From contig JADBYT010000019.1 in NCBI GenBank assembly GCA_020402865.1, positions 68,622 to 132,621 of the forward strand: a stretch of DNA of 64,000 nucleotides, in the 5' to 3' direction. The notes beneath the pieces were generated by a model. The model saw only the letters and a program-made list of their open reading frames with translations. It made no database searches and had not been told where the DNA came from. Below, one piece after another: positions 1,122-57,512 of the stretch (position 1 is its first letter; each line of letters starts with the position of its first letter). The DNA is from Bacteroidota bacterium. GTDB lineage: Bacteria; Bacteroidota; Bacteroidia; Palsa-965. The position numbers were made by a program, and so were the translations under genes.

Positions 1122-2408
1122 ATGTCAATAGACCGCACTTTGGCTCCGGCCTTTCAGCCTGTAAAAGACGTGCATTTGCTGCAGGCTTCAGAAGTAAAAC
1201 TCAGCAACGGCATTCCGGTGTTCCGTCTCGATGCGGGCACACAGGAAGTAGTGAAAATTGAATGGCAGTTTGCCGCCGGCATCCGCATGCAGCCGCAGCC
1301 GCTGGTAGCTACCGCCGTAAACGATATGCTCGACGAAGGCATAGCCGGCCGCAGCGCCGAGGAACTGGCCGAAGAGCTTGATTACTACGGCGCGTTCATC
1401 GAGTCGGAAACCACGCACGATGTGGCTTCGTTTACGCTGTACAGCCTCAACCGGCATTTGCCCGCGGTGCTGCCGCTGGTGCGTGCCATGCTGTTTGAGC
1501 CGGTGTTTCCGGCGGCCGAGTTTGACGTGTACCTCAGCAACCGCCGCCAGAAATTTGTGGTGGATGCCGCCAAAGTGGGCAACATGGCCCGCCGCGGCTT
1601 TGCCGAATTTTTGTTCGGCTCCGCGCATCCCTACGGCGCCAAAGCCGAACTCGCAGATTTCGACCGCCTCGGCCGTGAGCAGCTGGTGAACTTTCACCGC
1701 AGCCACTACACGCCCGCAGCCTGCACCATTATTGCCGCCGGCAAAGTAACCGATGCCGTAACCGGCGAACTGGAAAAAGCCTTTGGCGCCCTGCCCGTGG
1801 GCGAAAAACCGCAGCACACCCTCATAATGCCCGCGCCGGCCACACATGCCGCACGCATACACACCCTCGAAAAGCCCGACGCCCTGCAATCGGCCATCCG
1901 CACCGGCTGCATGCTGTTTAATAAAACCCATGCCGACTACCACGCCATGCAGGTGCTCAACACCGTGCTGGGCGGCTATTTCGGCTCGCGCCTCATGGCC
2001 AATATCCGCGAGGACAAAGGCTATACCTACGGCATCGGCTCCGGCATCGTATCCATGCAGCACGCCGGCTACTTTGTCATTTCTACCGAAGTAGGGGTTG
2101 ACGTAACCAACGCCACCCTGCACGAAATCCGCACCGAAATAGACAAACTCCGTCAGCACGAAATTCCGGCCGATGAGCTTGAGCTGGTGCGCAACTACAT
2201 GACCGGCGTGTTCCTGCGCAGCACCGACGGCCCCTTCGCGCTGGCCGACCGCCTCAAAGGCCTGCTCGGCTACGAGCTTGGTTACGACTACTACTCGCGC
2301 TTCCTGCACACCGTGCAAAGCATCACCGCGCCGCAGCTGCAGCAGCTGGCGCAGCGTTACCTCAATCCTGAGCAAATGACGGAAGTGGTGGCGGGCATGC
2401 GGAAATAA
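1122..2408 (+). CDS. M16 family peptidase, second (probably non-catalytic partner) subunit
   Basis: 428-aa ORF 15 nt after the first M16 gene. It lacks HxxEH but has the typical M16 C-terminal-domain length and composition; paired M16 genes are a common arrangement. Confidence 0.75.
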   Translation: MSIDRTLAPAFQPVKDVHLLQASEVKLSNGIPVFRLDAGTQEVVKIEWQFAAGIRMQPQPLVATAVNDMLDEGIAGRSAEELAEELDYYGAFIESETTHDVASFTLYSLNRHLPAVLPLVRAMLFEPVFPAAEFDVYLSNRRQKFVVDAAKVGNMARRGFAEFLFGSAHPYGAKAELADFDRLGREQLVNFHRSHYTPAACTIIAAGKVTDAVTGELEKAFGALPVGEKPQHTLIMPAPATHAARIHTLEKPDALQSAIRTGCMLFNKTHADYHAMQVLNTVLGGYFGSRLMANIREDKGYTYGIGSGIVSMQHAGYFVISTEVGVDVTNATLHEIRTEIDKLRQHEIPADELELVRNYMTGVFLRSTDGPFALADRLKGLLGYELGYDYYSRFLHTVQSITAPQLQQLAQRYLNPEQMTEVVAGMRK

Positions 2409-2411
2409 ATT

Positions 2412-2461
2412 AAGGACGTGTGCATATAGTTTGCATCACGTCCTTATGAACTGTTTTTTTC
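2412..2461 (+). terminator. putative intrinsic terminator after the M16 peptidase pair
   Basis: Inverted repeat aaggacgtg...cacgtcctt followed a few nt later by a T7 run. It lies between convergent genes. Confidence 0.4.
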
Positions 2462-2564
2462 CTAGATGCGATTCGTTGATATAATATTGTTCTTATAGTT
2501 AATAAGTCTTTTGTTAATTTATCAGATCACAATCTTAACGTGTATTAATGGTATTGAATAAATA

Positions 2565-3863
2565 CTATATTTTACTTAAAGGGGCAAATAAAGTACTCAG
2601 ACTTGAAAAATTTATTGCTTTTGATAATGTTACGACATATTGTGGCATTGGAGATTTCAATGTATTCGTAATTTCAGCTTGAATTGTAATGCCAGTAGAT
2701 GCTTCAGTAATCCATGCTCTGCCAGAAAAGAAATAATCATTAGTGGACTTGTATGTTTGATTGTTAATTTTACTTGATTCTGGAGTATAAATTGTAGTCC
2801 AACCGGCAGCAAAATAGATAGATACTGTTATGTTTTTGTTTTGATGATTAATATACAAACCAAGCCCCTTGTTGAATTTAAACTGATTAGATTTAGAGTT
2901 AAAACTTCTTGGGTAATTTAATATTTGCGGAAATTGTGAGGATACTGTTCTTGTTTGCGAATACGCAGAGTCGCCAATAAGATATTCTGTGTTTTTTGCA
3001 ATTCTTTGCCAGATAAATTCTGCTGATGGCGAGAAATATAGTTGAACTAAGTTAGAAGAAGAACTCAAGGATTTTATCTTAAATTTTTTGTGATTAATGT
3101 TTATCAGTGGTGAAAAATATGCACCAATATTTTCTGATGAAAATTTAGTGATGGCATCTGTTTGCTCATAAGAAAAAACCGATGTAGTGTCATTTATTTT
3201 TACAGCTTGATAAGGACGAATTACGTCTTTGAGCGTATCAACTGATGTAATATTTCTATTTCCATATAAGTTTAAAAAGAAGCCACTTTTAAAACCATTT
3301 TCATGGGAGTTAGGGACAAAAATATTTGTAGCAAAAAATAAATTTTTCGCTTGTATCCCATCTACCAGATCAAAATTTGTTCCTACATACGCCAAGTAGT
3401 TATATTGATTTATGGACTCACTTTTTTTTGTTGTGATAGATGTCATTCTATCTTTTGATAGATTAAGAGAAGAGATGTTTTTTTTGTTCTTGAATACTAC
3501 TAAATCTATTAAAAGTGTTCTTTGCTTGTCAGGAATACTGTCAGGAAAAATTGTTACAAGAAAAAGTATGGTGTCCCCGTTGTTTTTTGAAGTAAGTGTT
3601 TGTTTGTTGTGAAGAATTTCATAGTCTGTTGCAGGCAGAGAACTATTATTGATATTAGCTACGATGTCAACTTCTAGTGTATCTCCAATTGGAATACTGT
3701 CAATATAGTATTTGCAGATTACTTCGGTCGATTTGAGTGGGGCTTTAGTGATCGCTATCTCCTTATTAATCATCGATATCATAAATTTAGAGTCAGATTG
3801 TGCAGATGAGTTAATTGATAGAAAAACACCAGCAGCAATTAGGAGTTTTGTCAGTAGTTTCAT
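2565..3863 (-). CDS. hypothetical secreted/outer-membrane protein, compositionally atypical (AT-rich)
   Basis: 432-aa ORF with an N-terminal signal peptide (MKLLTKLLIAAGVFLSINSSAQ). Its GC is far below the neighbouring genes; the protein is Ser/Asn/Thr-rich with no recognisable catalytic motif. Confidence 0.6.
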   Translation of the reverse strand: MKLLTKLLIAAGVFLSINSSAQSDSKFMISMINKEIAITKAPLKSTEVICKYYIDSIPIGDTLEVDIVANINNSSLPATDYEILHNKQTLTSKNNGDTILFLVTIFPDSIPDKQRTLLIDLVVFKNKKNISSLNLSKDRMTSITTKKSESINQYNYLAYVGTNFDLVDGIQAKNLFFATNIFVPNSHENGFKSGFFLNLYGNRNITSVDTLKDVIRPYQAVKINDTTSVFSYEQTDAITKFSSENIGAYFSPLININHKKFKIKSLSSSSNLVQLYFSPSAEFIWQRIAKNTEYLIGDSAYSQTRTVSSQFPQILNYPRSFNSKSNQFKFNKGLGLYINHQNKNITVSIYFAAGWTTIYTPESSKINNQTYKSTNDYFFSGRAWITEASTGITIQAEITNTLKSPMPQYVVTLSKAINFSSLSTLFAPLSKI

Positions 3864-4008
3864 GAGTTTAGAGGTTTGGTTTCATGAAATTTATGTAATT
3901 TTAATGTGCAAGTTTATTTTTGGGGTATATTTTATTAAATCATTGATTAATTTCCCTAAATCATAGGATTTAACACTCCTTAGTACACAAGCCGCGCAAA
4001 GGCTTGCT

Positions 4009-7000
4009 TTGCATCCTCAGAATCCTATCTTTGTGTTGGCTCACAACACATTGATAACACGATTTATGATGCAAATAGGAATAAAGCGACTCCTGCTTTT
4101 CCTCTTACCCGCCTTTTTCCTGCTTCCGCAGGCAAAAGCTTCGCACCTGATGGGTGGCGAAATTACGTGGGAATGTCTGGGTACCGGGCAGTTTGTGTTT
4201 CAGATGAAACTTTACCGTGATTGCAACGGTGTTACGGCTCCGCCGGCGGCTGCGCTCGATGTATTTAACAATCCGGCCATTACGGTAATCAACCTCACAC
4301 TGGTTTCGCAGCAGGATATTTCGCCCGTGTGCAACGGCGCGGGGCCTACCATTACCTGTGCTGCAGCTTCTGCGTCAACCACACCCATTCCGGGCGCGGT
4401 GGAAGAATACATTTATCAGTCGGCACCCATTTTTATGAATGGTACACCGCCCCCGCAGGGCTGGGTGTTTACTTACGACGACTGCTGCCGCAACAATGCC
4501 ATTGTGAATTTGCAGAATCCCGGCGGTGCGGGGTTCACGCTGCGCGCCATTATGTATGCCTACAATGCGCAGAACATGAATCCGTGCTACGATAACTCAC
4601 CGAAATTTCTCGAAAGTCCCAAGTCAATTATCTGCACCGGTTATCCGTTTACCTACAACCACAATGCAGTGGATGTGGAGCTCGACTCACTTTCCTACGC
4701 CTGGGCCGAGCCGCTTGATCAGTTTACCACGTTTCCGCCCGCCGCCTACAACCCCGGTGTGGATCCGCCGTTTATTCCGTTTGTGGCCGGTTTCAGTATG
4801 ACCAGCCCGCTTCCCGGCACCAACCTCGATCCGAACAACGTGCCCGCCACACTCGATCCGTTTACCGGCGAAGTTTCTTACACTTCCTTTACACAAGGCG
4901 CGTTTGTTACCTGCATTAAAGTGCAGGCGTGGAAATGCGGACAGCTTGTAGCCGAAATTTTCCGCGAAATTCAGGTGGTGCTTTTACCCTGCGGCACCAA
5001 TACGCCGCCCGATGTGAATGCACCGTTTCAGGATCCCGTTACCGGCCTCTTTACCTTGTATGCCGATACGGTAACGGCCGGGCAGCTTGTTACCTTTACA
5101 CTCACCGGAAGCGATTTTGAGTTTTTACCCAACGGCGCACCGCAAACGGTAACCATGACCGCCACCGGCCTGCAGTTTGGCACCGGCTTTACCAATGCGG
5201 CTTCCGGCTGTTTAAATCCGCCCTGCGCCACGCTTAATCCGCCTCCGCCCGTGTCGGGGGCATTGGGTACGCAAACCACCTTTACCTGGCAAACCGACTG
5301 CAACCACGTATCCTACACCAACCAGTGTTTTGTGCAGTCGAACACCTACAATTTTGTAATCCGCACGGCCGATGATTTTTGTCCGGCACCGGCCCAAAAC
5401 ATTGCCACCATTTCCATTACCGTGCTCAACTTGCCGGTGGTGCAATCGCCGGAGGTGCATTGCCTGGCGGTGGATGCTGCCGGCGGGGTTACGCTTACGT
5501 GGGAGCAGCCGCTTGATACGGCCAACACCTTCAACAGCTACCACATTTACAGCTCCGCCAATGCCAGCGGGCCGTTTACGGTTATTGATTCTATTTTCAA
5601 TTACAACCAGACCAGCTACACCCACGCCGGTGCCAACGCCAACAGTGCGCCGGTGTATTACTACGTGCAAACCCGTTCGGGATGCGGTGGTGCGGTTATG
5701 CTGCCTCCGCAGGATACACTCAGCTCCATTTACCTGCAGGTGGTAAACAACAATAACCTTACCGCTACACTCAACTGGAACAACATCAGCACACCGCCCC
5801 CGGTTTCGCAGTTTGGCTGGTTCCGCATTTACAAGGAATATCCCGCCGGTGTGTGGACACTTATTGATTCCACCCAGTCGCTCAACTACACCGACAGTAT
5901 TCCGTATTGCAACGCCAACGTAAATTACCGCATCGAAATAGGCGATTCGCTGGGCTGTGTGTCTGTATCCAATGTGGACGGCGTGCTGGCGCAGGATGCC
6001 ATTGTGCCTGCCGTGCCCGTGCTCGACAGCGTGTCGGTAAATGCGGCCGGTAATGCCGTGCTGGGCTGGCAGCCTTCCACCTCAACCGACGTAACGGCCT
6101 ACATCATTTTCCAGTTCATCAACAACATCTGGACGGCCATTGATACCGTGTATGGCTACAACAACACGTCATACACCAACACCATTTCCAACGCCGACCA
6201 GCAAAGCGAACTCTACGCCGTGGCGGCGGTTGACAGCTGCAGCAACGTAACCGTGTTCAGCAGTCAGCACAACACGCTGTTCCTTACCGGCATACTTGAT
6301 GTGTGCAACGTGGCCAGTGTGCTTTCGTGGAATGCCTACAACAACATGACCGGCGGTGTGGCCGCGTATGAAATCTGGTTTACCGAAAACGGCGGGCCGC
6401 TTCAGCAGGCCGGCACAGTGGCCGGAAACATCACCACCTTTACACACAGCGGCCTCACCCAGTTTTCGACCTACTGCTATTATGTGCAGGCGGTTGATGC
6501 CACGGGGTTAATTACGTCCACCTCGCAGGAGTTTTGTCTTTTTGCCAACGTGCCCCAGCTGCCGGCGTTTGAATACCTGCGTGTGGCTACCGTAAATGCG
6601 CCGAACACCGTTGAAGTGCGCGCCTTTGTGGATGTAACGGCCGACGTGATCCGCTATGATGTGTATCGCTCAGAAACACAAACCGGCCCGTGGGCGCCGC
6701 TTGGCAACGTACCTTTTTCGGCCACCACACCGCAAATCAGCTTTACCGACAACACCGCCGAAACCAGTGTGAAAAGCTACTGGTACAAAATGGTGGCGGT
6801 TGACAGTTGCGGCAACGATGCGTACACGTCAAACCTTGGCCGCACCATTCTGCTTCAGGCCACCGCCAACAACGAAATTACCAATACCCTCATCTGGAAC
6901 CCGTATGAAGCCTGGGCTTCGCCGGTGCTGGGCTACAACGTTTACCGCGCAGTTGACGGTGTGCTTGCGCCCGTGCCTGTAACCTTTGTGCCGCATACCG

Positions 7001-7431
7001 GTACAATGACCTACACCTACGTAGATCAGGTTGAAACCTACATTCCGCAGCGCGGACGTTTCACCTACCTGATTGAAGCCGTGGAAACACCTGTAAATCC
7101 CTTCGGCTACACCGATACCAGTTACTCCAACCTGGCCGAAGTGGTGCAAAAGCCGCTGGTGTATGTGCCCAACGCCTTTACACCCAACGGCAACGGCCTG
7201 AACGACTTGTTTATGCCCTCGCTCGGTTTTGTGGATGTGGAGGAATACGACTTTACGGTGTTTAACCGCTGGGGCGAAATTATTTACCGCACCAATGTGA
7301 AAACCGAAGGCTGGGACGGACGTTACCTCGGCGATAAATGCCAGCCGGGCGTGTATGTGTGGACGGTAACCTTCCGCGCCGCTTCCGGCGATTTTGTGGA
7401 CCAGAAAGGTACAGTTACGTTAATTCGTTAA
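4009..7431 (+). CDS. large cell-surface protein with FN3/Ig-like repeats and a T9SS type B C-terminal sorting domain
   Basis: 1140-aa ORF. The probable start is the MMQIGIKRLLLFLLPAFFLLPQAKA signal peptide at ~4066. The C-terminus (VPNAFTPNGNGLNDLF...FNRWGEIIY...GWDGRY...GVYVWTV) matches the gliding-motility-associated (type B) CTD. Confidence 0.85.
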   Translation: MHPQNPIFVLAHNTLITRFMMQIGIKRLLLFLLPAFFLLPQAKASHLMGGEITWECLGTGQFVFQMKLYRDCNGVTAPPAAALDVFNNPAITVINLTLVSQQDISPVCNGAGPTITCAAASASTTPIPGAVEEYIYQSAPIFMNGTPPPQGWVFTYDDCCRNNAIVNLQNPGGAGFTLRAIMYAYNAQNMNPCYDNSPKFLESPKSIICTGYPFTYNHNAVDVELDSLSYAWAEPLDQFTTFPPAAYNPGVDPPFIPFVAGFSMTSPLPGTNLDPNNVPATLDPFTGEVSYTSFTQGAFVTCIKVQAWKCGQLVAEIFREIQVVLLPCGTNTPPDVNAPFQDPVTGLFTLYADTVTAGQLVTFTLTGSDFEFLPNGAPQTVTMTATGLQFGTGFTNAASGCLNPPCATLNPPPPVSGALGTQTTFTWQTDCNHVSYTNQCFVQSNTYNFVIRTADDFCPAPAQNIATISITVLNLPVVQSPEVHCLAVDAAGGVTLTWEQPLDTANTFNSYHIYSSANASGPFTVIDSIFNYNQTSYTHAGANANSAPVYYYVQTRSGCGGAVMLPPQDTLSSIYLQVVNNNNLTATLNWNNISTPPPVSQFGWFRIYKEYPAGVWTLIDSTQSLNYTDSIPYCNANVNYRIEIGDSLGCVSVSNVDGVLAQDAIVPAVPVLDSVSVNAAGNAVLGWQPSTSTDVTAYIIFQFINNIWTAIDTVYGYNNTSYTNTISNADQQSELYAVAAVDSCSNVTVFSSQHNTLFLTGILDVCNVASVLSWNAYNNMTGGVAAYEIWFTENGGPLQQAGTVAGNITTFTHSGLTQFSTYCYYVQAVDATGLITSTSQEFCLFANVPQLPAFEYLRVATVNAPNTVEVRAFVDVTADVIRYDVYRSETQTGPWAPLGNVPFSATTPQISFTDNTAETSVKSYWYKMVAVDSCGNDAYTSNLGRTILLQATANNEITNTLIWNPYEAWASPVLGYNVYRAVDGVLAPVPVTFVPHTGTMTYTYVDQVETYIPQRGRFTYLIEAVETPVNPFGYTDTSYSNLAEVVQKPLVYVPNAFTPNGNGLNDLFMPSLGFVDVEEYDFTVFNRWGEIIYRTNVKTEGWDGRYLGDKCQPGVYVWTVTFRAASGDFVDQKGTVTLIR

Positions 7432-7957: not shown

Positions 7958-9508
<1,551 letters not shown>

Positions 9509-9529: not shown

Positions 9530-9850
9530 TGCTAAATGTATAATGCAGCCGGACTTTGTCCGGCTGTTTTTTTTGGGGTGTGTGTAATAATGCAGCCGGC
9601 TGTTTTTTTTGGGGGGAATGTTTGGAGTGGTTTTTTGTGTGTTGTAATGCAGCCGGGTGTTTTTTTTGGGGTTAGGCTGTTTTTTTTGGGGGGGAAGTGT
9701 TTGGAGTGGTTTTGTGGTGTTGTAATGCAATTGGGTGTTTTTTGGGGTTCGGCTGTTTTTGGGGTTGGAGTGTTTGGTGTGGTTTTGTGGTGTAGTAATT
9801 CAGCCGGGTGTTTTTTTGGGGGAGTGATGTAATTCTTTAAGTGGGGTGTT
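9530..9850. repeat. degenerate tandem array (4-5 units, ~58-76 bp) of terminator-like GC-stem/T-run units
   Basis: Reiterated units gtaatgcagccgg(c/g)tgttttttttgggg...gtttggagtggttttgtgtgtt at about 9540, 9588, 9646, 9722 and 9797. ORFs 9536..9832(+) and 9532..9900(-) are artefacts of the repeat. Confidence 0.7.
9546..9574 (+). terminator. Rho-independent terminator of guaB
   Basis: Perfect hairpin cagccgga-ctttg-tccggctg followed by T8, 38 nt after the guaB stop. Confidence 0.7.
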
Positions 9851-10048
9851 TGGGGACGCGTATTTTGGGTAGTTGTCACCGGGATATAGGTTTTACGCAT
9901 AATGCGTATATTAAATAGTTGATAATGTAATGTGTTTATAAATAATGAGTTAATGTATTTTGTAGTTAGTTGTGTTTTTGCGGGGTAATTGCGTATATTT
10001 AGGAGTTGCCTGCAACCCTAACAGATCCTAATAGCAAAGACAGAATTT

Positions 10049-11284
10049 ATGTTTGGATATAGAAATACAATTAAGGCTTTCTATGAAATAGACAGCTACA
10101 CTTACAGACAAGAAAAATCAAATAGCATTGTAAGTGAGATAACAAATAAAGGCAAAGAATACATTTTGGGGGTTGATGAAAATGAATTTATAGAGTATTT
10201 AATTGAAAAATATAGTATTGAACCATTAACGGTTGACAGGGAAAATCCAAGTATCAACGAACCAACTGTTTCAAAAGAATGGGTAGAAGACAGAATGTGG
10301 AGAGAAAAATATCAAACTGATGTTTATACTTTTACAATTAGTTACAAATTTTCAGGTTCGTCTGAATTATTTAAGGTTAGACCTGACACTTGGACAATGA
10401 CTACAACTGAAATTTCAATAAATGAACAAAACTCAACAGTATCGTTTAGTTTTAAACTTTATAGAAAAGACCCAGGAGAATTTAATAATGCTAAAAGAGA
10501 TTTTGAAAACAGAGCCTTTGCAAATCTTCAAAATGTAAATAACTTAGTTAGTAGTTGGAATAATTCAATTAAAGGACTTGCAACTTCAACATTTCAAGAA
10601 CACAAAAGAAAATTTCAGCAAGAGAATGATTTTTTTGCTGCAATCAATGTAAAAGTAAATACAAATACTTCATCAGTATTTACTGCACCAACAATAAAGA
10701 AAAAAGTTATACCACAACCAACAGTAAGTCCAAAAAAAGAATTTTCATCAGAGCCAATGATGAGCAAAGAAATGTATGATGACATCTTAAAAGTGATCTA
10801 CGATTCTGGAAAGAATATGGAGAAGAAACCAACTTTATATCAAAACAAAGACGAAGAGGGTTTAAGAGACCAATTTTTGTTCGTATTAGAAACAAGATAT
10901 GATGGAACTACTGCAAGTGGTGAAACATTTAATAGAAGTGGTAAAACAGATATACTTTTGAAATACGCTAATGATGGAAGTAATTTATTTGTAGCAGAAT
11001 GTAAGTTTTGGCACGGAATAAACGAATTTCAAAAAGCAATTTCACAACTATTTGACAGATACTTAACTTGGAGAGACTCAAAAACAGCCTTGATAATGTT
11101 TGTGAAAAATAAAGACTTTTCAAATGTAATTGAGACAGTAAAAAAAGAAATTAACGAACATCCTTACTTTTCTAAATTAGTCGGACATCGTGGTGAGACT
11201 TCTTTTAGTTACTTGTTTCATTTACCACAAGACAATCAAAAACCAGTACAATTAGAAATAATGCTTTTTCATTATGACAAATAA
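10049..11284 (+). CDS. hypothetical protein with an unknown N-terminal domain and a C-terminal PD-(D/E)xK-like nuclease motif; candidate defence effector
   Basis: 411-aa ORF in the AT-rich island. Its C-terminal region (FVLETR ... GKTDILLKYANDGSNLFVAECKFWHG) matches the E...D...ExK spacing of the restriction-endonuclease-like fold. Confidence 0.7.
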   Translation: MFGYRNTIKAFYEIDSYTYRQEKSNSIVSEITNKGKEYILGVDENEFIEYLIEKYSIEPLTVDRENPSINEPTVSKEWVEDRMWREKYQTDVYTFTISYKFSGSSELFKVRPDTWTMTTTEISINEQNSTVSFSFKLYRKDPGEFNNAKRDFENRAFANLQNVNNLVSSWNNSIKGLATSTFQEHKRKFQQENDFFAAINVKVNTNTSSVFTAPTIKKKVIPQPTVSPKKEFSSEPMMSKEMYDDILKVIYDSGKNMEKKPTLYQNKDEEGLRDQFLFVLETRYDGTTASGETFNRSGKTDILLKYANDGSNLFVAECKFWHGINEFQKAISQLFDRYLTWRDSKTALIMFVKNKDFSNVIETVKKEINEHPYFSKLVGHRGETSFSYLFHLPQDNQKPVQLEIMLFHYDK

Positions 11285-11488
11285 ATAGGGCAGCAGGCAA
11301 CATCGGTTTGGCAATATGGCGGCTGAAGTGCTTCTATGAAACATTTGTGCAAGGTTCAACAGCATTAATTCTATTGAACTTTATTGCTAAAAATCCGCCA
11401 CATCGCCAAGCCGTTTCCCGTTAGCAACAATTATATGACAAACCATGATATCAGTAAAATTGGTTTAAGCCCAAAAAAATGCAACAAA

Positions 11489-14158
11489 ATGAAAGAGGAA
11501 ATATATATTTCATATGCATGGATTAAATCCCCTACAGGCAATAAGGGGCACTCAACAATTGTTAACTCTATTGAGAAAAAATTGAAAGGTCATTTCAGCG
11601 TTAAAATTGATAAAAAAGATTTAAAGTACAAGGGAAACATAAAGGAATTTGAACAACGACTGGGACGAAATGGAAAAATTGTTATTGTCATTAGTGATAA
11701 GTTTCTTAAGTCAAAACATTGCATGCACGAAGTGCAATGTATAGTTGAGAAAGGCAATGTATATGAACGGATATTTCCAGTTGTGTTGGATGATGCTGAC
11801 ATTTATAACTCAAAAGGGATTCTTAAGTACGCTAAGTATTGGGAGAAGGAAAAGGAAAAATTAGAAAAGGAGTTGAAAAAAACTAAATCGCAGGCCAATC
11901 TTATTCCAGTACAAAACGACATCAATTTATTTTCTAAGTACCGTGAAATTATTGCTGGTTTTATTGCCATACTCAACAATATGAATACGCTAACTCCAGA
12001 AATTCATGAAGGGGCAAAATTTGAACAATTAATTGAAGCACTGTATGGAAAAAATCCACGACCTGACCATAAGCAGGAAAAGGATTACGCCAAGCGAATC
12101 TCAGAGACCAAAAAACTATTTGATAGTGCAATAAAGATTATAGAAAAGGAAATCAAAGAGAGAAAAATTAAGGCTGAGGAAATTCTTGGAAAAATAAGGC
12201 ACTTTCAAAATCAATGCACCCAACAAACATTTCAAATTGCTGTAATGGCAATTTTAAAATCGGGGAAATCCACCTTTTTAAATTCGTTACTCGGCAATGA
12301 GTTTTTGCCCGTTTCGAATGTTGCGGCAACTTCTGTCCCCGTTAGGATTAATCATTCAAGACATAAAGACGGGTATCTTACTTTTGGGAAAAGCAAAATT
12401 GATGGTGTAGAAAAGATTAGGAAGCAAATCGAATTGACCAATGAAGAAAAGAGAGATAAGGGAATGCAAGAGGTTCAATTTAATTTGTTTGCTTCTTTCA
12501 GGGCACTTGAGGATAAGGAAATGACTGATATTAAGTTTGAAATATTAGACACACCTGGCTTTGGTGAAGCACTTACTGAAATTACAATTGGAAAAACAAT
12601 TGACGAATCCAATTTGGAGCTTATTGATAAAATCAGCGCAATAATCTATTTGCTGGATTACACCAAATTGAAAACAACAGACGAGGATAAGGTGTTTGCA
12701 AAGTTAACTGAGATGCGAAGTGACATTCTGGATAAAATATCAGACAGGTTGTTTTTTATAATTAACAAAATTGATGAGGAAAACAGGAATAGTTTGCCAC
12801 CAGATAAAGTAGTTGATTATGTATTTGACATCGTTAAAACGAAAATGCCGAATGTTTTAAAGCAGCACATTTTTACAATATCCGCTAACCGTGCATTATT
12901 ATCTAGATTAATTCTTTTTGAGAATGCGACCAGTGAAGCGAAAAAGGACTTTGGTAGAATGGCCTTTGGATTTAAAGCAAACCAAAAGGATGAATCGGAA
13001 TACAAAGAAGTAGCAAGAGAAATATTAGCCGCCAGTAACATTCTTGAAGTTGAAAGCAGAATTCTGAATCACATTTTCGATAATCGAAGTAGGATATTTG
13101 TCGAAGGTCTGCAGGACAGCTTGAAACATTTAATGAAGGAATTCAAGAATAAATTTATTATCACTGCTGAAGGAGTTCTTAGCAGAACAATTGAAGAAAT
13201 TACTGACCTTGAATCAAAAATTGAGGCAGCAAAAAAAAAACAACAAAGTATCCAGGACGAAGCGGATAAATTTGAAACGGAAATCAAGGAATGGAATGAA
13301 ATAGAATTTCGAAACTTTGAAAAAAGCATCACAGATCAAATTGACTCAGCTTTCAATATTGAAAAGGTTGAAGAAAAGCAATCGTTTTGGGGTAGAATGA
13401 TGCCAAATTGGGTAAAGAGAGTTGGAAATAAATTGCGCGAGGTACAAGACTCCGTTGATTCCAGTTCGAAATATGATGTTGAGGAATCAATTCGTGCGCT
13501 TAACAAGGAAATTAATGAGGAGTTAATTAATTCATTCGGAATATTCAGACGGGAATTAGAGAATAAATTAGCCTCAAAGCAGAAAGCACTTTTTGAATCG
13601 CTGAAGCAAACGATAAATACATTAGCAAAAGAGTTCGAGAGCACATTAAAAAAAGGACTTAAAGTGGAATTTGAACAAACAGAGGTTCGCTTAGACGAGC
13701 CAGATTTTGACAGAACCCTAATAAAGGCAGATGAGCTCATTGATAGATTTGTACAAAGCGACTGGAAAGGAGTTCGTGTTGCAAAAAAAGAAAAGGTTTA
13801 CAACGAAAGAAAGAATTGTTATCTGGGGGGATACGACACTTTTACTACTTATGAAACTCAATACTTTGAGGAGAATAGAATAAGCAAGACCTCCTTAGAA
13901 TTGTTTTGGAAAAAAGTAATTGATGACAGGCATCAAAATGCGAAGGGAGTGACGAATAAGTTACTTGAAAACAGTATAAAAGCTCAGATTAAGAACGCAA
14001 GGAAAAGTTTCGACACATACGTGGGAGATTACCTTTTAACTATCCAAGAACAAAAGGCTCGATTGACGAATAGCGACAAATCGGAAATTGCAAATCAGAT
14101 AGCACACTTAAGACAATTAAATGAGACGGTATCGAGTATTATTCAAGATTTGAAATAG
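11489..14158 (+). CDS. TIR domain + dynamin-like GTPase + coiled-coil fusion protein; candidate defence sensor/effector
   Basis: The ORF runs 11384..14158, and the likely ATG is 11489 (MKEEIYISYAW). The N-terminal segment has a TIR signature (IYISYAW...VIVISDKFLKSKHCMHEV, containing the conserved Glu). A P-loop GTPase follows with G1 AILKSGKSTFLNSLLG, G3 ILDTPGFGE and G4 INKIDEE, a dynamin_N-like pattern. The remainder is a long heptad-rich, K/E-rich tail. Confidence 0.8.
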   Translation: MKEEIYISYAWIKSPTGNKGHSTIVNSIEKKLKGHFSVKIDKKDLKYKGNIKEFEQRLGRNGKIVIVISDKFLKSKHCMHEVQCIVEKGNVYERIFPVVLDDADIYNSKGILKYAKYWEKEKEKLEKELKKTKSQANLIPVQNDINLFSKYREIIAGFIAILNNMNTLTPEIHEGAKFEQLIEALYGKNPRPDHKQEKDYAKRISETKKLFDSAIKIIEKEIKERKIKAEEILGKIRHFQNQCTQQTFQIAVMAILKSGKSTFLNSLLGNEFLPVSNVAATSVPVRINHSRHKDGYLTFGKSKIDGVEKIRKQIELTNEEKRDKGMQEVQFNLFASFRALEDKEMTDIKFEILDTPGFGEALTEITIGKTIDESNLELIDKISAIIYLLDYTKLKTTDEDKVFAKLTEMRSDILDKISDRLFFIINKIDEENRNSLPPDKVVDYVFDIVKTKMPNVLKQHIFTISANRALLSRLILFENATSEAKKDFGRMAFGFKANQKDESEYKEVAREILAASNILEVESRILNHIFDNRSRIFVEGLQDSLKHLMKEFKNKFIITAEGVLSRTIEEITDLESKIEAAKKKQQSIQDEADKFETEIKEWNEIEFRNFEKSITDQIDSAFNIEKVEEKQSFWGRMMPNWVKRVGNKLREVQDSVDSSSKYDVEESIRALNKEINEELINSFGIFRRELENKLASKQKALFESLKQTINTLAKEFESTLKKGLKVEFEQTEVRLDEPDFDRTLIKADELIDRFVQSDWKGVRVAKKEKVYNERKNCYLGGYDTFTTYETQYFEENRISKTSLELFWKKVIDDRHQNAKGVTNKLLENSIKAQIKNARKSFDTYVGDYLLTIQEQKARLTNSDKSEIANQIAHLRQLNETVSSIIQDLK

Positions 14159-14388
14159 CTATTCAGTAAAATAGTGAAGTTTAGTAAACTTTGGGAAAAT
14201 TATAAAACAACTATTGCTAACAGGCGTTTGGCTCAATGGTGGGTACAGTGGTTAAATGAAGCTTTTGCTTCTTTCTAAGTTTCTGCTGCTTTGACTGTGA
14301 AGTGCTTCGAAATACTGCACGAACGCCAAACGGCAAAACCTTACTACTAATTCTAAATCATATCACATCGACAACAAATAGAAAGAAA

Positions 14389-15021
14389 ATGATCGAACCT
14401 GAAATACAATATAAAGTACCAAATTACTGCCCGACTTGTAATTCGATAGTTGAGACTGGAATTCTTTTCAGTTATGCTTTGAATATTATATACACAGACG
14501 AATTAGAAAACCAAGGGACAGCCGTAATATTAGGAAAGTGCTTGAATTGCAACAGTCCGTTTTTATCACAAGAAGATTTTCAAAATATTGAAGAGCATTC
14601 TTGGGTAAATGACAAATTTCAACTTTACCCATTGACAGACAACTTCGCATTAAAAAACGCACCTGATATTGTTATTAATCCATACAAAGAAGCCCAGAAA
14701 TGTTTTAGGGCTCAAGCATATGAAGCTTGTGTAATAATGTGCCGAAAAGGAATTGAAGCGATATGCACTGACAAAGGCGAGACAAAGGGCAACCTCGCAG
14801 ACAAATTAAAAAAACTAAAAGACAACCATATTTTAGAAGAAACATTTTATAACTGGTCAAACGAATTGCGACTTATTGGAAATGACGGAGCCCACTCACA
14901 CGACAAAATAATTAACAAGCAAGATGCGAGAGACGCCATTGACTTTTTTGACGCTTTGATAACATATTTATATCATTTGGTTGATCAATACAAAAAATTA
15001 AAAACTCGTAGAACTAAGTAA
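14389..15021 (+). CDS. Zn-ribbon + DUF4145-like domain protein
   Basis: The ORF runs 14302..15021, and the likely start is MIEPEIQY at 14389. It has a CxxC...CxNC zinc ribbon (CPTCNS...CLNCNS). The C-terminal block AQAYEACVIMCRKGIEAIC...LRLIGNDGAHSHD...ARDAIDFFDALITYLY resembles DUF4145, a domain found on type I restriction endonuclease (HsdR) C-termini and abortive-infection/defence proteins. Confidence 0.65.
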   Translation: MIEPEIQYKVPNYCPTCNSIVETGILFSYALNIIYTDELENQGTAVILGKCLNCNSPFLSQEDFQNIEEHSWVNDKFQLYPLTDNFALKNAPDIVINPYKEAQKCFRAQAYEACVIMCRKGIEAICTDKGETKGNLADKLKKLKDNHILEETFYNWSNELRLIGNDGAHSHDKIINKQDARDAIDFFDALITYLYHLVDQYKKLKTRRTK

Positions 15022-15062
15022 TGACAAGTGGAGTAAAGAATATTATTTATTTCAGTGTCTAT

Positions 15063-15869
15063 CTATAGAGTATCAAATTTATTAGCATAGTAATGAGCTT
15101 TTTCACGGTCTTTAGGTTCGCTATTCCCATAGAAGTTACTATGAGAAAATAGTGTTTGTGTAAGGTAATTTTTAAGCCAAAGATATTTTGCATAGTTTTG
15201 AGTTCCACTGTATAATTCATTTTTAATATTAGTATATATATATTCTAAATCATCGATATTTTTAAGGGCTATTCGTTCTGCAAATGAAATAAAAATTGCA
15301 TCATTATTTATGATCGTAAAGTCGGTGGGATATTGATATATTAAACGATTTGGTCTATCAACTGCGCCGGGGTAAATGCTATCATAGTTATATTGTAATA
15401 TAAAATATTCTTTGGTTTGGTGGGAAGGATTACTATCATATGATGCAATGATTCTTGGGTCAATAATTACTCTAGGATATTTTTCCTGTGATTCTAAAAT
15501 ATAAGCATCACTAAGTCCATTTCCTACAACAATATTTAGTTCAGTATCAAAATGAATGTCACCTAAAGTTACTGCTCCTCTAATCCAAATATTTTCCCTT
15601 GCACAGTCGCATTGTATTGTTTGAACTGCAGTTAATAGCTCTCTTAATCCTTCTATGCTTAACTCACTGGCAAGAATAACTGAATCACTCACTAATTGAC
15701 CGCGAACATTTTCTTTACTCGATTTTACTTTTTTTAGAGTTTTAGTAATTACTTCGAAATACTTATCAAACCTAAGGTCTGTATCTTTTTTGCGTAACAT
15801 TTCTTTAAATCCTAAGACATCTAAAAATGCAACATATTGCTTCTCTTTTAGATTTTTTGACATTGACAT
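15063..15869 (-). CDS. class III nucleotidyl cyclase-like (palm-domain) protein; possible signal-generating cyclase
   Basis: 268-aa ORF convergent with the DUF4145 gene. YVAFLDVLGFKEML (first metal Asp), QLVSDSVILASE (second Asp), IWIRGAVTLGDIHFD and VVGNGLSDAYILES resemble the conserved blocks of class III adenylyl/guanylyl (and Pycsar pyrimidine) cyclases. Confidence 0.6.
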   Translation of the reverse strand: MSMSKNLKEKQYVAFLDVLGFKEMLRKKDTDLRFDKYFEVITKTLKKVKSSKENVRGQLVSDSVILASELSIEGLRELLTAVQTIQCDCARENIWIRGAVTLGDIHFDTELNIVVGNGLSDAYILESQEKYPRVIIDPRIIASYDSNPSHQTKEYFILQYNYDSIYPGAVDRPNRLIYQYPTDFTIINNDAIFISFAERIALKNIDDLEYIYTNIKNELYSGTQNYAKYLWLKNYLTQTLFSHSNFYGNSEPKDREKAHYYANKFDTL

Positions 15870-16062
15870 TGTTTTCTGTTTTTGTATGATTGCGTCTTTC
15901 TGGTGTTTATTTATATATTGTAAATATATTAAGTGTTTTATTTAGATCAAGATTTGTGCTAATATTTATATTAAAGGAGTAATAAATTGTCATTTTTAGG
16001 CAGATCTCTTTCTGATCTAGCTTCATGGTGAATTTAATGTATATGACACTAACATACCCCCT

Positions 16063-51935: not shown

Positions 51936-53618
51936 TTACTTTACTTTAGCACCCTCCATTTTCTGTCCGCCCTGAGAAAATGTAAGACTGATAATTGTTC
52001 CATCCGTATGTAAGTTAAACACCACCTGCGCTCCCATTTCCTTAATTATAAAACGCTGCTCGGCTAAGGCAAAAAGCTCAACAGGCGGCTGCTCCGGGAA
52101 CTTTGCAAAAAGGTGTTCGTTCTCAATTTCCACTTCAATTTGTAAACCGGGTTGCAGTTCATATACCCCTGTATAGCTGACAAGTGTTTGCAACGGTAAT
52201 TGTATGGTTTCCATTTCAGCCATTGGTTTTTTATCCGTTTCAATGCCCCTGCTTTTTTCAATCCTGTCGGTATAAAGCACCTGCTTTTTACCATTTTTTG
52301 AGGAGAAGGTGTATGTGGCTAAACGGTTTTCAAATCTGAATTCTGTTGCCGACAATGGTTCGAGTTTTATCGGGCGTCCACCCTCGCGCATACTGTAAAG
52401 CGATCCGTTTTCATACGAGATGAAGCGTACCACATCCTCAAACTGATAGGCTCCTACCCATTTCTTCAACTCTTTTTCCGAAATTGTAACCGGAGCTTTT
52501 TCAATAAGTGATTTGCCTAAAAGAGCAGAAACGGCTTTTATATTGTATGCTTCCGGCCCTTTCCCGTCATCGCGGTTGGTTAATACAATGGAATAAATAT
52601 TACGTTCAGGAACATAAATGCCGGATGTGGTAAAACCATTCATTCCGCCGGTATGTTCAAGTGTAGCTGTTCCGGCTATTTCATTTATTGCCCAGCCATA
52701 TCCGTAATTTGACAACTTACCGCTTGTTAAAGTGTGGTTTGTAAATGCCAGTTTCTGACTTTGTGCTGAAATAAGTGTGTGATGATGAATGGCGCTGTGC
52801 CATAAAAACATATCGTCAATGGTTGACATTAATGAACCGGCTGCATAAGGAATAGTCGGACTCATGTACTCCGGATTTTCGTAATTGCCTTCATAGAGCT
52901 GATAGCCATTGGCCATGCGGGGAATTACTTTGTAATTATCGGCATAATACGAGTTTTTCATTCCGAGTTTATCAAAGATGTTTTTCTGCACAAAGTCACC
53001 GTAGCTCATGCCAGAAAGTTTTTCAATTATATAACCCAAAAGCACGTAGCCCGAATTGCTGTAGGCATACCTTTCGCCGGGAGTAAACTCAAGGGGAAGA
53101 TTTTTAAACGAACTGATGATTTCCTCAGGACGCATGTCGAGCCGTGTTTTTGCTCTGAATTCGGGCAAATTGGTATAGCTTGTTATGCCGGAAGTATGAT
53201 TCAGCAAATGATGCAGCGTAATCTCGTTTCCTCGTGGGTAATCAGCAATGTATTTCGACAGCTGATCGTTCAGGCTTAATTTGCCTTGTTCCATCAACAT
53301 CAATATGCTAACGCTGGTAAATTGTTTGGTTATAGAAGCCAGCTGCAGCACATTTTCGGGCTTCATAGGCACATTCAATGCCAGGTTTGCCATACCAAAA
53401 GCTTTTCGGTAAATAATCTTGTCGCCCTGAGCAATCAGCACAGTGGCACCCGGCGAATTGGCCGGGTATGCCTGATTGAAAATGGCATCAATTTCAGCTT
53501 CTGTTTGTTGTGTGGAAACTACAACTGATCCGGGATCTGCTTTCGATGATACTGGCTTTGATTGCCCGAAAAACAGGTGGGTAGATAACAGTGCTAAACA
53601 GGTGAATGTGAATTTCAT
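51936..53618 (-). CDS. serine hydrolase (class C beta-lactamase/penicillin-binding-protein family)
   Basis: 560 aa with a signal peptide. The S-x-x-K active-site motif is present (LASITKQFTSV) in the expected N-terminal position, followed by a C-terminal extension domain. Confidence 0.8.
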   Translation of the reverse strand: MKFTFTCLALLSTHLFFGQSKPVSSKADPGSVVVSTQQTEAEIDAIFNQAYPANSPGATVLIAQGDKIIYRKAFGMANLALNVPMKPENVLQLASITKQFTSVSILMLMEQGKLSLNDQLSKYIADYPRGNEITLHHLLNHTSGITSYTNLPEFRAKTRLDMRPEEIISSFKNLPLEFTPGERYAYSNSGYVLLGYIIEKLSGMSYGDFVQKNIFDKLGMKNSYYADNYKVIPRMANGYQLYEGNYENPEYMSPTIPYAAGSLMSTIDDMFLWHSAIHHHTLISAQSQKLAFTNHTLTSGKLSNYGYGWAINEIAGTATLEHTGGMNGFTTSGIYVPERNIYSIVLTNRDDGKGPEAYNIKAVSALLGKSLIEKAPVTISEKELKKWVGAYQFEDVVRFISYENGSLYSMREGGRPIKLEPLSATEFRFENRLATYTFSSKNGKKQVLYTDRIEKSRGIETDKKPMAEMETIQLPLQTLVSYTGVYELQPGLQIEVEIENEHLFAKFPEQPPVELFALAEQRFIIKEMGAQVVFNLHTDGTIISLTFSQGGQKMEGAKVK

Positions 53619-53733
53619 TTTGTGTGAGTATTATAATTGACTTTGTTCGAAATTGGTTTTGTTTATGGCAATAAATAGCCAGCTCACTGAGTGAGTAATT
53701 TTATTTTGTAAAAAGAATTGAACTAGGAGCGCC

Positions 53734-54171
53734 TTATTTTCTTATGTAGAAGAAATACGCTAAATAACTTAGGCCAAGACTAAAAGCCATTATCGCCAAA
53801 GAATGAATATTGATCGGTGCAGTCAGATAAGTAATGGTCAAACCTATACCGAGGCCACAAAAAAGAATAGCCAGTTTAATTGCATTATTCTTCTTCTCCT
53901 GAATATTTTTAGTTAATGAGTAAGCCGCTAATTGCTCAGTCATTCCCCGTTCAATAAGTTTGTTTTTTAAACGGTATTCTAAAAAATAGTTAACCAGTGT
54001 GACAAGCATAAGAACCAGAAATGACATAAACAGAATGGGGAATATCATTTCAACAACAGGTTGTGTGACAAAGGTATTTCCTGCCGGTTCATTAATCGGA
54101 TTGTTTTGCGCGGATACCAGAACAGGCATCTGCAGCATGAGTAAGCACACCAATATTTTTTTCATCTCCAT
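53734..54171 (-). CDS. hypothetical membrane protein
   Basis: 145 aa with 3-4 TM segments, immediately downstream of the anti-sigma gene. Confidence 0.45.
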   Translation of the reverse strand: MEMKKILVCLLMLQMPVLVSAQNNPINEPAGNTFVTQPVVEMIFPILFMSFLVLMLVTLVNYFLEYRLKNKLIERGMTEQLAAYSLTKNIQEKKNNAIKLAILFCGLGIGLTITYLTAPINIHSLAIMAFSLGLSYLAYFFYIRK

Positions 54172-54205
54172 ATTAATTTTGAATTATACTCAATCAGACA
54201 ACCTT

Positions 54206-54673
54206 TTATGACATCGGTTGCAAATTTGTATTAAATAAATTTCCCTCTTTTGTTTTATACTGCCGAATAATATCGGTCAGGATAATCAGTAAAACTATCA
54301 GGGCAGTTCCTGTTACCAGAAGTGTTGTAACTATTGAACCGGCGCATATATAATCCAGCACTTGAGCGATATAAGGAATTGAAAAAGAGGAAACGATAAT
54401 CAGCATAACTGCAAAAAATCCCCAAAAAAATAATTCCTGTTTTCCCCTTTTCTTCTTCTCAAAAAGCATAACTGCATGCATTGCCAGATCAGAAACATCG
54501 AATGAAAACGTTTCTGTTTCTACTTCCTGCAGCTGATTAATCAGTGCGTGATATTCATCACGCTTTTTCCTGCAAATGAAGCACCCGGCAAGATGTGCGT
54601 CATAAGTATTATCCTGAATCTCATTCAAAATAATAGCTTGAATCGTTTCGTCAGTTAAATGGTTGTTATTCAT
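54206..54673 (-). CDS. putative anti-sigma factor (zinc-finger, membrane-anchored)
   Basis: 155 aa with an HLAGCFICRKK (H-x3-C-x2-C) motif and a C-terminal TM region. It overlaps the ECF sigma gene stop by 4 nt. Confidence 0.5.
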   Translation of the reverse strand: MNNNHLTDETIQAIILNEIQDNTYDAHLAGCFICRKKRDEYHALINQLQEVETETFSFDVSDLAMHAVMLFEKKKRGKQELFFWGFFAVMLIIVSSFSIPYIAQVLDYICAGSIVTTLLVTGTALIVLLIILTDIIRQYKTKEGNLFNTNLQPMS

Positions 54674-55242
54674 AACTGCGCGTTTTTATAGTGGTGATTG
54701 ATATTGTCTTTCAGAATTTTTCTTGCCCTGTACAAATAGCTTTTTACTGTTCCTTCCGGTAGATTGGTAATCTCCGCAATTTCCTTGTTGGGTAATTCTT
54801 CTATGTGGTAAAGCGTGATTAACGTTTTATACAAAGGAGGGAGACGGCCGATTGCTGCATGCAGAATTTCTATTGACTCTGCATGAATTGTTTCAACTTC
54901 CGGGTTTGGGATTTCGATAAATCGGTTCTCCAGTTTATCTTCAATACCAACAACTTGTATTTTCTTTTTTTGCAAGTAATTTACAGTGGTATTGTAAGCA
55001 ATATTCGCAATCCAGGTTGATAATTTTGATTTGAATTGAAAAGAAGCCAGATTTTGATAAACCTTTAAATAAATATCCTGCACAAGATCTTTCTGGTCAT
55101 CTTCATTTACAGTCATTTTACGTACAATCTGAGCAACCAGTTTTTCCGTGTTTTTTATTACAACAGCAAAGCCCTGAACATTACCATTCAGGATGTTGGT
55201 CACAATAGCCTTGTCAGAAATGTAGCTACTATCGTTGCTCAT
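54670..55242 (-). CDS. RNA polymerase ECF-type sigma-70 factor
   Basis: 190 aa with a region 2 (DLVQDIYLKVYQNL) and a region 4 HTH (LYHIEELPNKEIAEITNLPEGTVKSYLYRARKILK). Confidence 0.85.
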   Translation of the reverse strand: MSNDSSYISDKAIVTNILNGNVQGFAVVIKNTEKLVAQIVRKMTVNEDDQKDLVQDIYLKVYQNLASFQFKSKLSTWIANIAYNTTVNYLQKKKIQVVGIEDKLENRFIEIPNPEVETIHAESIEILHAAIGRLPPLYKTLITLYHIEELPNKEIAEITNLPEGTVKSYLYRARKILKDNINHHYKNAQL

Positions 55243-55623
55243 GTTTTAATAATAGACAGGCAACTTTCAATCCGGTTGCAAAAAAAATGATTTATTTTTT
55301 GATGGGTAAATTGAAGGTGATTTTCTAAATATATACAATTGGCTGAATCATCTAATTTTACCCTGATCTTTGGTAACTTGCTTTTAAAGAGCCTATCCTT
55401 TGGATAGAATTAGAAAGTAGCGGCCACCGATTGTTGTGTCCGTTCAATTTCGTTTTCTTTTTAAGTCTCCGTTGCAGACTCCGTGTTTATGATAGGTATA
55501 AATTTAAAGACGAATTCCCGACAGTCTTTAACAGGCTGTCAGGAATTCGTCTGTTGAAATGATCGTTCTGATATTCAAAAATTAGCAGAACCGATGTTTG
55601 TCAAATTTTGGGTTATCAATCGT

Positions 55624-56043: not shown

Positions 56044-56060
56044 GTGTGGTGAGTTTGTCG

Positions 56061-56690: not shown

Positions 56691-56806
56691 AGTTTTTACT
56701 AATTAGAATTGATAATGCAAAAGTAGATTGGCGCCCGTGCTTAACTCCTACACTTAAGTTAAGAAATCGGCCTTGCCGGTATTGGTGTTTGTATATTTAT
56801 CAGCCT

Positions 56807-57430: not shown

Positions 57431-57512
57431 TTTCGTTTTCTTTTAGTGAAACGATGCAGCAAAAGTAGATTGACAAAAGTGCATAGCTACAGCACTTAAG
57501 TTAAGAACGCGC

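Follow-up and report, generated by a model that had tools for sequence, protein, structure and literature searches.

A candidate single-gene anti-phage nuclease of the PDC-S54 family in a low-GC island of a Bacteroidota genome

Does a gene that sits beside a TIR-domain gene in a Bacteroidota genome encode the effector of a nucleotide-signalling defence, or a nuclease that acts by itself? The question is raised by an open reading frame (ORF) in a 64,000-nucleotide stretch of contig JADBYT010000019.1 (assembly GCA_020402865.1, positions 68,622 to 132,621 of the forward strand), the whole of which we call the window. An earlier sequence-only reading had described the product as a domain of about 270 amino acids (aa) fused to a PD-(D/E)xK-like nuclease core, and had suggested that the N-terminal part could sense a nucleotide made by a TIR protein or a cyclase. 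The ORF listing places the gene exactly where that reading had it:

10049..11284, + strand: PDC-S54 ORF, complete, with an ATG start, 411 aa and a stop codon

We find that this ORF is a full-length member of the PDC-S54 family, that the family is organized as a solitary gene, and that the C-terminal domain, which also occurs in other protein architectures, carries invariant, active-site-like residues at the positions that a PD-(D/E)xK fold would lead one to expect. With moderate confidence, we read the product as an autonomous, single-polypeptide candidate anti-phage nuclease.

Membership of PDC-S54 is given by a PADLOC match (model PDLC05036; E 2.6e-111, 371 bits) that runs over aa 8-409 of the protein and positions 5-406 of the 410 in the profile. 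The same model is matched by 109/109 diverse family members, and PADLOC classes PDC-S54 as a single-gene system. The family is among 145 bioinformatic phage defence candidates (PDCs), which were drawn from genes that lie inside BREX, DISARM, and type I restriction-modification (RM) loci (Payne et al. 2024, bioRxiv 10.1101/2024.01.29.577857). The window gene does not differ from the family as catalogued, being likewise a lone gene that lacks a conserved partner, and it is no new kind of system. Scans of the window protein against Pfam and NCBIfam matched no family, and the literature that we searched holds no mention of PDC-S54, its domains or its mechanism.

PDC-S54 is a large family that moves horizontally. 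Clustering at 50% identity yields 3,058 clusters at E<=1e-3 and 932 at E<=1e-30. The best 120 of 3,164 homologues in a word-indexed database are all full length, with 60-92% identity, and those that bear a name are called hypothetical; the UniRef name of one family member begins 'Restriction endonuclease type IV M...'. Hosts include Bacteroidota, Chlorobi, Ignavibacteria, Desulfobacterota, Gammaproteobacteria, Firmicutes, Chloroflexi, Dadabacteria, and one Peribacteria genome, while plasmid-borne members are found in Spiroplasma, Rhizobium, Streptomyces, Deinococcus, and haloarchaea. Within the subfamily of the window gene, identity across phyla is unusually high (60-70%). Such a patchy, horizontally transferred, low-GC (guanine-cytosine) distribution is typical for defence genes. 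Two phage records contain members as well. One is the complete genome (64.8 kb) of the gut phage NatCom_35866 (PV036449.1, Ca. Heliusvirales; locus L080, 1437-2705), which encodes a full-length homologue of 422 aa, ~27% identical, and this is therefore a candidate defence gene that phages carry too. The NatCom_35866 gene lies near one genome end and adjoins transposase fragments.

Does the gene travel with a partner? We called ORFs in a sample of 70 genomic loci, plus several others, and clustered 1,176 neighbouring proteins. Apart from PDC-S54 itself, the most widespread neighbour cluster reaches 6/70 loci, and the other clusters that recur mostly trace back to a handful of syntenic Flavobacterium genomes. 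Immediate neighbours were counted over 65 loci. The downstream gene encodes Fic, DUF3800, HTH_3, Abi_C, or TIR_2 in 2 loci each, with the TIR_2 cases being the window and Pedobacter; SMODS/AGS_C, RVT_1, SIR2_2, DNA methylase, DUF559, SocA, and dynamin occur once each. Upstream genes are mostly housekeeping, together with HsdS (twice), resolvase (twice), Abi_2, AbiEii, and a HEPN protein, and TIR_2, SMODS, and dynamin are absent among them. The immediate neighbours are thus a heterogeneous set, with many defence or mobile genes in it, and neither a TIR gene nor a cyclase or helicase gene accompanies the family as a conserved partner. The unit is delimited directly by the closest homologous locus (L001), whose protein is 91% identical and which gives a single blastn match:

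10005..11302, + strand: DNA in common with L001, 85.6% identity over 1,298 base pairs (bp)

This common DNA reaches from 44 bp before the ORF to 18 bp after it, and the flanks beyond are unrelated. Because no neighbour recurs and L001 shares only the ORF and its short flanks, the gene moves as a one-gene, self-contained cassette. A toxin-antitoxin pair was also considered and rejected, there being no small conserved neighbour.

What does the single protein look like? The full-length AlphaFold2 (AF2) model was built on 28 sequences and has a predicted local distance difference test (pLDDT) of 75.8. A separate model of aa 235-411, built on 147 sequences that include members at ~30-38% full-length identity, reaches a pLDDT of 89.4 and a predicted template modelling (pTM) score of 0.87. 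Together they divide the protein into four parts:

10049..10471, + strand: N-terminal alpha/beta module, aa 1-141, AF2 pLDDT mostly 75-95
10472..10645, + strand: long helical hairpin, aa 142-199, AF2 helices 142-157 and 160-199, pLDDT ~90-95
10646..10765, + strand: basic linker, aa 200-239, isoelectric point (pI) 10, motifs NVKVN..SVFTAPTIKKK.IPQP....KEFSSEP
10766..11281, + strand: C-terminal nuclease-like domain, aa 240-411 (AF2 aa 235-411), the most conserved part of the protein

The N-terminal module is predicted as three helices and a four-stranded sheet, has a pI of 4.9, and is the least conserved and fastest-evolving part of the full-length family, which fits a sensor or regulator. It has no Pfam, NCBIfam or PDB-sequence match and no Foldseek match to PDB or BFVD at E<=1e-3, so that the N-terminal part is indeed without a recognisable motif, as the sequence-only reading had it. 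The hairpin, which gave only coiled-coil-type chance matches in profile searches, probably serves for oligomerisation or as a lever. The linker is poorly predicted (pLDDT <50 for aa 198-237 in the AF2 model); its residues S209, F211, P214, P224, and P236 are invariant in the close homologues, and P224 is kept in at least 90% of a more diverse set. The sizes first proposed for the two domains need adjustment: the nuclease-like part covers ~172 aa (240-411) and not 130, and what precedes it is an N-terminal fold (aa 1-199) followed by the linker (200-239).

Within the C-terminal domain, the model has the element order alpha-alpha-beta-beta-beta-alpha-beta-alpha-beta-beta-beta and contains the core alpha-beta-beta-beta-alpha-beta topology of PD-(D/E)xK, formed by helix 269-283, strands 287-290, 302-306, and 312-320, helix 324-338, and strand 345-352 (protein numbering). 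An aspartate before beta-2 and an ExK in beta-3, within the alpha-beta-beta-beta-alpha-beta order, is the canonical PD-(D/E)xK layout. In the model, D301 (model residue 67) comes directly before the second strand (68-72) and the third strand holds E317 and K319; Q333 and Y338 sit in the helix that follows the third strand, and E269, R273, and D274 start the helix that precedes the sheet. The residues in question map to the DNA as follows:

10853..10870, + strand: E269-x3-R273-D274, start of core helix alpha-1 (helix 269-283)
10889..10891, + strand: E281, later in the same helix
10919..10951, + strand: G-E292-T-F-N-x-x-G-K-T-D301, beta1-beta2 loop, the most conserved block of the family
10997..11005, + strand: E317-C-K319, the (D/E)xK motif, strand beta-3 (model strand 78-86)
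11045..11062, + strand: Q333...Y338, helix after beta-3 (model helix 90-104), which recalls the McrC/RecB-type Q..Y motif

Conservation was assessed in 28 close homologues and in 149 diverse representatives at 26-69% identity. The sequence-only reading had named E281, D301, E317, and K319 as the catalytic set, in the strings FVLETR, GKTDILL, and VAECKFW. These strings are present, and all four residues are invariant in the close homologues. Among the diverse representatives, D301 is kept in 146/146, E317 in 145/146, and K319 in 140/146, whereas position 281 is E in only 77/148 (Q in 15, S in 14, N in 11). The D and ExK part of the proposal therefore stands, and E281 is not supported as catalytic because it is not conserved. 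Other residues are kept about as strictly as the motif itself, i.e. E292 of GETFN (146/146), E269 (147/147), R273 (147/147), D274 (139/147), E258 (148/149), Q333 (145/146), and Y338 (141/146). Around E292 and D301, F294 is kept in 144, N295 in 143, G298 in 146, K299 in 136, and T300 in 141. E269 or D274 is a candidate for the first acidic active-site residue, and as an extra acidic ligand, E292 and either of these two, which lie on the helix of E281, are better candidates than E281. A bare D...ExK pattern is trivial by chance; its near-invariance over ~3,000 clusters is not.

The weak resemblances of this domain to known nucleases all lead to one superfamily, although every score lies below significance. 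When the 109 diverse members are scanned against Pfam at E<=1, DUF234 appears below threshold in 12 (best E 0.003), and the other recurrent weak matches outside coiled coils are HSDR_N (4), PDDEXK_9 (2), Vsr (2), and pPIWI_RE_REase (2). One member matches Mrr_cat (PF04471) over the D...ExK region, with E 0.011 and 16.2 bits where the cut-off is 21, and a type IIG restriction endonuclease model (REase_MTase_IIG) gives a weak match over the motif region (E 1e-4). We take DUF234, HSDR_N, PDDEXK_9, Vsr, pPIWI_RE_REase, and Mrr_cat to be families of the PD-(D/E)xK clan. The recurrent weak Pfam and PADLOC matches of the diverse members fall in restriction-endonuclease-fold families and never in nucleotidyltransferases. 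The one notable PHROG match is phrog_9664, over aa 232-408 (E 1.4e-10), for which no function is annotated.

Structure comparison points the same way. Foldseek compared the full model with PDB and BFVD, and the C-terminal model with PDB. The top PDB fold match of the C-terminal model is McrC (6hz4_M; E 8.7e-3, probability 0.87, template modelling (TM) score 0.38, 174 columns), and the sole BFVD match of low root-mean-square deviation (4.4 Å over 126 columns; probability 0.97, E 0.054) is a viral protein named "Restriction endonuclease type IV Mrr domain". Further C-terminal matches are short (48-73 columns) and fall on palm/thumb regions of DNA polymerase (Pol) beta and Pol lambda. In a non-significant hhalign alignment with Escherichia coli McrC, TD301I pairs with TD244I, E317-x-K319 with D257-A-K259, and QL..Y with QLMNY (YQLMNYL); hhalign against E. 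coli Mrr gave nothing.

For the nuclease core proposed earlier, then, there are invariant D, ExK, and Q residues on the expected elements and recurrent weak matches to restriction endonuclease families, with no score that is significant. Likewise, the pLDDT-89 model is nuclease-like in its element order and in the placement of D and ExK, while its fold-match scores stay below threshold. As the nuclease similarity is consistent and sub-threshold throughout, we regard a PD-(D/E)xK fold of the C-terminal domain as probable and not proven.

The same domain is found outside the full-length architecture. It stands behind unrecognised N-termini in four proteins (P0237, P0252, P0207, and P0226) and essentially alone in the phage proteins of phrog_9664; in P0386, a DUF4926 domain is added ahead of the full-length architecture. 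A metagenomic protein of 574 aa (P0202) has a T5orf172/MUG113 (GIY-YIG-like) domain at aa 266-373 and the PDC-S54 C-terminal domain at aa 400-572, and would join two putative nuclease modules. This modularity fits a portable effector module. On the E. coli IncHI2 plasmid pEC_CBJ3C (NZ_ON960341.1; locus L077, 5473-9898), a 344-aa protein has the C-terminal domain only, with a PADLOC match to PDC-S54 over aa 178-341 (E 9e-38). Its gene lies directly upstream of a gene for a 1,020-aa DEAD/DEAH helicase (weak matches to PbeA, HamB, and type I restriction endonucleases), and a retron St85 reverse transcriptase is nearby. The pair may be an uncatalogued two-gene nuclease-helicase system; the literature searched does not mention this plasmid relative (WP_097506613).

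How might a lone protein of this kind work? The C-terminal domain would be a metal-dependent Mrr/McrC-like DNA endonuclease, which the N-terminal module and the helical hairpin may hold silent by assembling an oligomer, possibly with help from the conserved basic linker. The N-terminal part would directly detect a phage cue, be it a protein or some unusual feature of the DNA, and the nuclease so released would cut phage DNA and possibly host DNA. Neither a diffusible signal nor a helper gene would be needed. The regulatory logic would thus be that of a Shedu-like sensor and nuclease in one protein, and not that of a second-messenger effector.

Shedu itself combines a variable N-terminal sensor with a C-terminal DUF4263 PD-(D/E)xK nuclease, and its self-inhibition and direct sensing are established. 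PDC-S54 resembles Shedu (SduA) in being a lone polypeptide of ~400 aa with a fast-evolving N-terminus and a conserved restriction endonuclease-like C-terminal core, and in the self-inhibition and direct sensing that we propose for it. It differs in that DUF4263/SduA is unmatched in the window protein and in the 109 members, that the GETFN..GKTD...AECKFW block is specific to PDC-S54, and that the N-terminal fold has no relative that we found. The arrangement that the sequence-only reading had likened to Cap4, Shedu, and HamA does not amount to kinship with any of the three, as their PADLOC models match 0/109 diverse members.

Several points weigh against an autonomous anti-phage nuclease. No similarity score to any known nuclease is significant: Foldseek returned no match at E<=1e-3 in any of the runs described above; the hhalign probability for McrC is ~3%, and a small McrC alignment, limited by the 10 homologues that the search for it returned, gave nothing significant either; phmmer and profile searches of the full length and of the C-terminal domain against all PDB sequences gave chance matches only (haloalkane dehalogenase, dynein light chain, and mannosyl-3-phosphoglycerate synthase were discarded as such); and the C-terminal consensus has no match in Pfam. 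What we propose for the oligomeric state, the trigger, and the substrate is conjecture. Since the N-terminal module is acidic, it is unlikely to read DNA directly, and its charge does not identify the cue. Every member of PDC-S54 has a defence role as a candidate only, and the link to defence islands is moderate because many upstream neighbours are housekeeping genes.

The best surviving alternative, which we nonetheless consider unlikely, is a type IV-like restriction endonuclease whose N-terminal region and linker bind a modified base or otherwise unusual phage DNA, with constitutive cleavage and no activation step. The nearest resemblances in fold and motif are indeed to McrC and Mrr, the linker adjoining the nuclease is basic, and the gene is solitary, with no conserved cognate methyltransferase (one is downstream in 1/65 loci). 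PDCs are, moreover, found embedded in type I RM, BREX, and DISARM loci, with HsdS directly upstream of PDC-S54 in two loci, and such placement is typical of type IV enzymes, as with E. coli mrr and mcrBC beside hsdRMS. Set against this, Pfam, PADLOC, and Foldseek reveal no SRA, EVE, PUA, YTH, winged helix or McrB-N reader (aa 1-239 may yet hold a reader of a new fold), the N-terminal alpha/beta module is acidic, no conserved McrB-like GTPase partner exists, and the Mrr_cat and McrC models never match above threshold in any member. Comparison with the two enzymes gives the same mixed picture. McrC, the nuclease subunit of McrBC, is the best PDB fold match, and hhalign lines up its D, ExK, and Q..Y motifs with those of PDC-S54; the low TM and hhalign values given above, an unmatched PF10117, the missing McrB GTPase partner, and unrelated N-terminal regions set it apart. 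Mrr, like PDC-S54, is solitary and without a methyltransferase, and shares with it the weak Mrr_cat match in one member and the Mrr-domain match in BFVD; it differs in that these matches are sub-threshold, that hhalign is empty, and that the N-terminal winged helix of Mrr is absent from PDC-S54. On account of the acidic N-terminal module, and with no fold of a DNA reader detected, we weakly prefer Shedu-like self-regulation over a type IV mode of action.

It is distinctly improbable, in our judgement, that the C-terminal domain is something other than PD-(D/E)xK (a Pol beta-like nucleotidyltransferase or a non-catalytic binder), or that the protein serves a non-defence role such as mobile-element maintenance or DNA repair. 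In favour of such readings, every nuclease similarity is below significance, many Foldseek matches are to the palm/thumb of DNA polymerases beta and lambda (probability up to 0.99), and the upstream genes include many housekeeping ones. The polymerase matches, however, span only 48-73 of 177 residues at E 0.01 or worse; the G[GS]...DxD signature is absent, with I-L following D301; and beta-1 and beta-2 have no intervening helix in the model. The Pol beta-like reading is accordingly rejected on motif, topology, and coverage, the more so as no nucleotidyltransferase figures among the weak matches. The ExK lysine, which is invariant, and the Q that comes after it count as hallmarks of PD-(D/E)xK, and the recurrent weak matches are to restriction-endonuclease-fold families only. 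As for a non-defence role, it sits poorly with the patchy, horizontally transferred, low-GC distribution.

Highly improbable, finally, is the activation suggested by the sequence-only reading, in which a nucleotide from a cyclase or from a TIR protein, in this case the neighbouring TIR-dynamin, binds to the N-terminal domain and so activates the nuclease, as in Cap4/CBASS or Thoeris. It draws on the TIR_2 and Dynamin_N gene that lies 99 bp downstream on the same strand in the window, on a SEFIR/TIR_2 gene 179 bp after the homologue in Pedobacter, and on the SMODS/AGS_C cyclase downstream in one locus. Over the 65 loci, these are the only such cases (TIR_2 2/65, SMODS 1/65, dynamin 1/65, none upstream); no neighbour family recurs in the 70 loci; PADLOC lists the family as single-gene; and the 91%-identical homologue has unrelated neighbours, the common DNA (10005-11302) stopping 18 bp past the stop codon. 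Nor do Pfam and PADLOC find a SAVED, CARF, SLOG, Macro or STING signature, so that neither a signalling partner nor a ligand-binding N-terminus of a recognised kind is borne out. Adjacency to the TIR-dynamin gene is most simply explained by co-residence in a defence island, and it is less likely that the window gene also cooperates with this fusion.

The same evidence separates PDC-S54 from the signal- or helicase-dependent systems. Cap4 (CBASS; DUF4297 and SAVED) and HamA (Hachiman; DUF1837, with the HamB helicase) have in common with it a PD-(D/E)xK-type nuclease in defence, whereas PDC-S54 matches none of SAVED, DUF4297, and DUF1837, and no conserved CD-NTase or helicase stands beside the full-length family. 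In the window, SMODS is absent and the gene has no helicase neighbour; a helicase adjoins only the distant, C-terminal-domain-only relative on the E. coli plasmid, which has a different architecture. Thoeris-like TIR effectors differ likewise, as TIR_2 is a rare downstream neighbour and the PDC-S54 protein has no SLOG or Macro domain.

The gene lies in a stretch of DNA that stands out by its composition:

9900..16050, no strand: low-GC variable island

Its GC content is 29-35% across 10-16 kb (composition windows), compared with ~53% in flanking DNA, and it is bordered by guaB (inosine monophosphate (IMP) dehydrogenase, 8042-9508) on one side and by a 1,530-aa minus-strand gene on the other. 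Four ORFs lie within it, i.e. the PDC-S54 gene, a TIR_2 and Dynamin_N fusion, a DUF4145 protein, and a 268-aa minus-strand protein, and a Pfam scan finds no integrase domain among them. The first 30 kb of the window, island included, contain no transfer RNA gene. A sigma-70 promoter and terminator scan near the gene gave 11 sites compared with 8.2 expected and is uninformative, being a scan without Bacteroidota promoters. We treat the island as genomic context only, and not as a demonstrated operon.

The TIR-dynamin protein (924 aa; window 11384-14158, + strand) has TIR_2 at aa 40-160 and a Dynamin_N GTPase at aa 285-462, a weak CrfC-like match in the GTPase part, and a long helical C-terminal region; an ATG at ~11489 (MKEEIYISYAW...) is a more plausible start than 11384. 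It matches no PADLOC system and may be an uncatalogued defence protein. The DUF4145 protein (14302-15021, + strand) matches its Pfam family at E 5.6e-19 and phrog_1305 ('DNA binding protein') at E 3.3e-31, and the 268-aa protein (15063-15869, - strand) has as its sole match phrog_23933 (E 3.1e-24), whose function is not annotated. Both therefore belong to phage-associated families, inside a chromosomal low-GC island.

At the left edge of the island, a terminator-like hairpin (9545-9567) directly follows the guaB stop codon and is followed in turn by a tandem array (9598-9822; 73-bp period, ~3 copies), whose units join 'TAATGCAGCCGG' to runs of T and of G and look like repeated terminator modules. 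Elsewhere in the window, two more stretches have low GC (31-42% at 2001-4000 and 37-41% at 52001-59000, compared with ~53%), which suggests additional horizontally acquired segments. A 1,140-aa protein (4009-7431, + strand) ends in a motif (VYVPNAFTPNGNGLNDLF...) that resembles the C-terminal sorting domain of type-9 secretion in Bacteroidota; taken with the closest homologues, this putative domain suggests a Bacteroidota host.

What, then, does the locus say about the family? PDC-S54 is noteworthy for its ~3,000 clusters in many bacterial phyla, on haloarchaeal plasmids, and in some phages, with no Pfam or NCBIfam model and no solved structure. To this, our analysis adds a domain map, candidate catalytic residues (E269/D274, E292, D301, E317, K319, and Q333), and support for a protein that works by itself. 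More tentatively, and we think this rather doubtful, PDC-S54 could be a new and widespread class of autonomous immune sensor-nucleases, in which a previously unseen N-terminal fold reads a phage component and an Mrr/McrC-like active site has the basic linker as its latch or pseudosubstrate. The family is a reasonable, not an exceptional, target for experiments and, if its role in defence is confirmed, it would enlarge the known set of self-contained sensor-nucleases by one whose sensor has a new fold.

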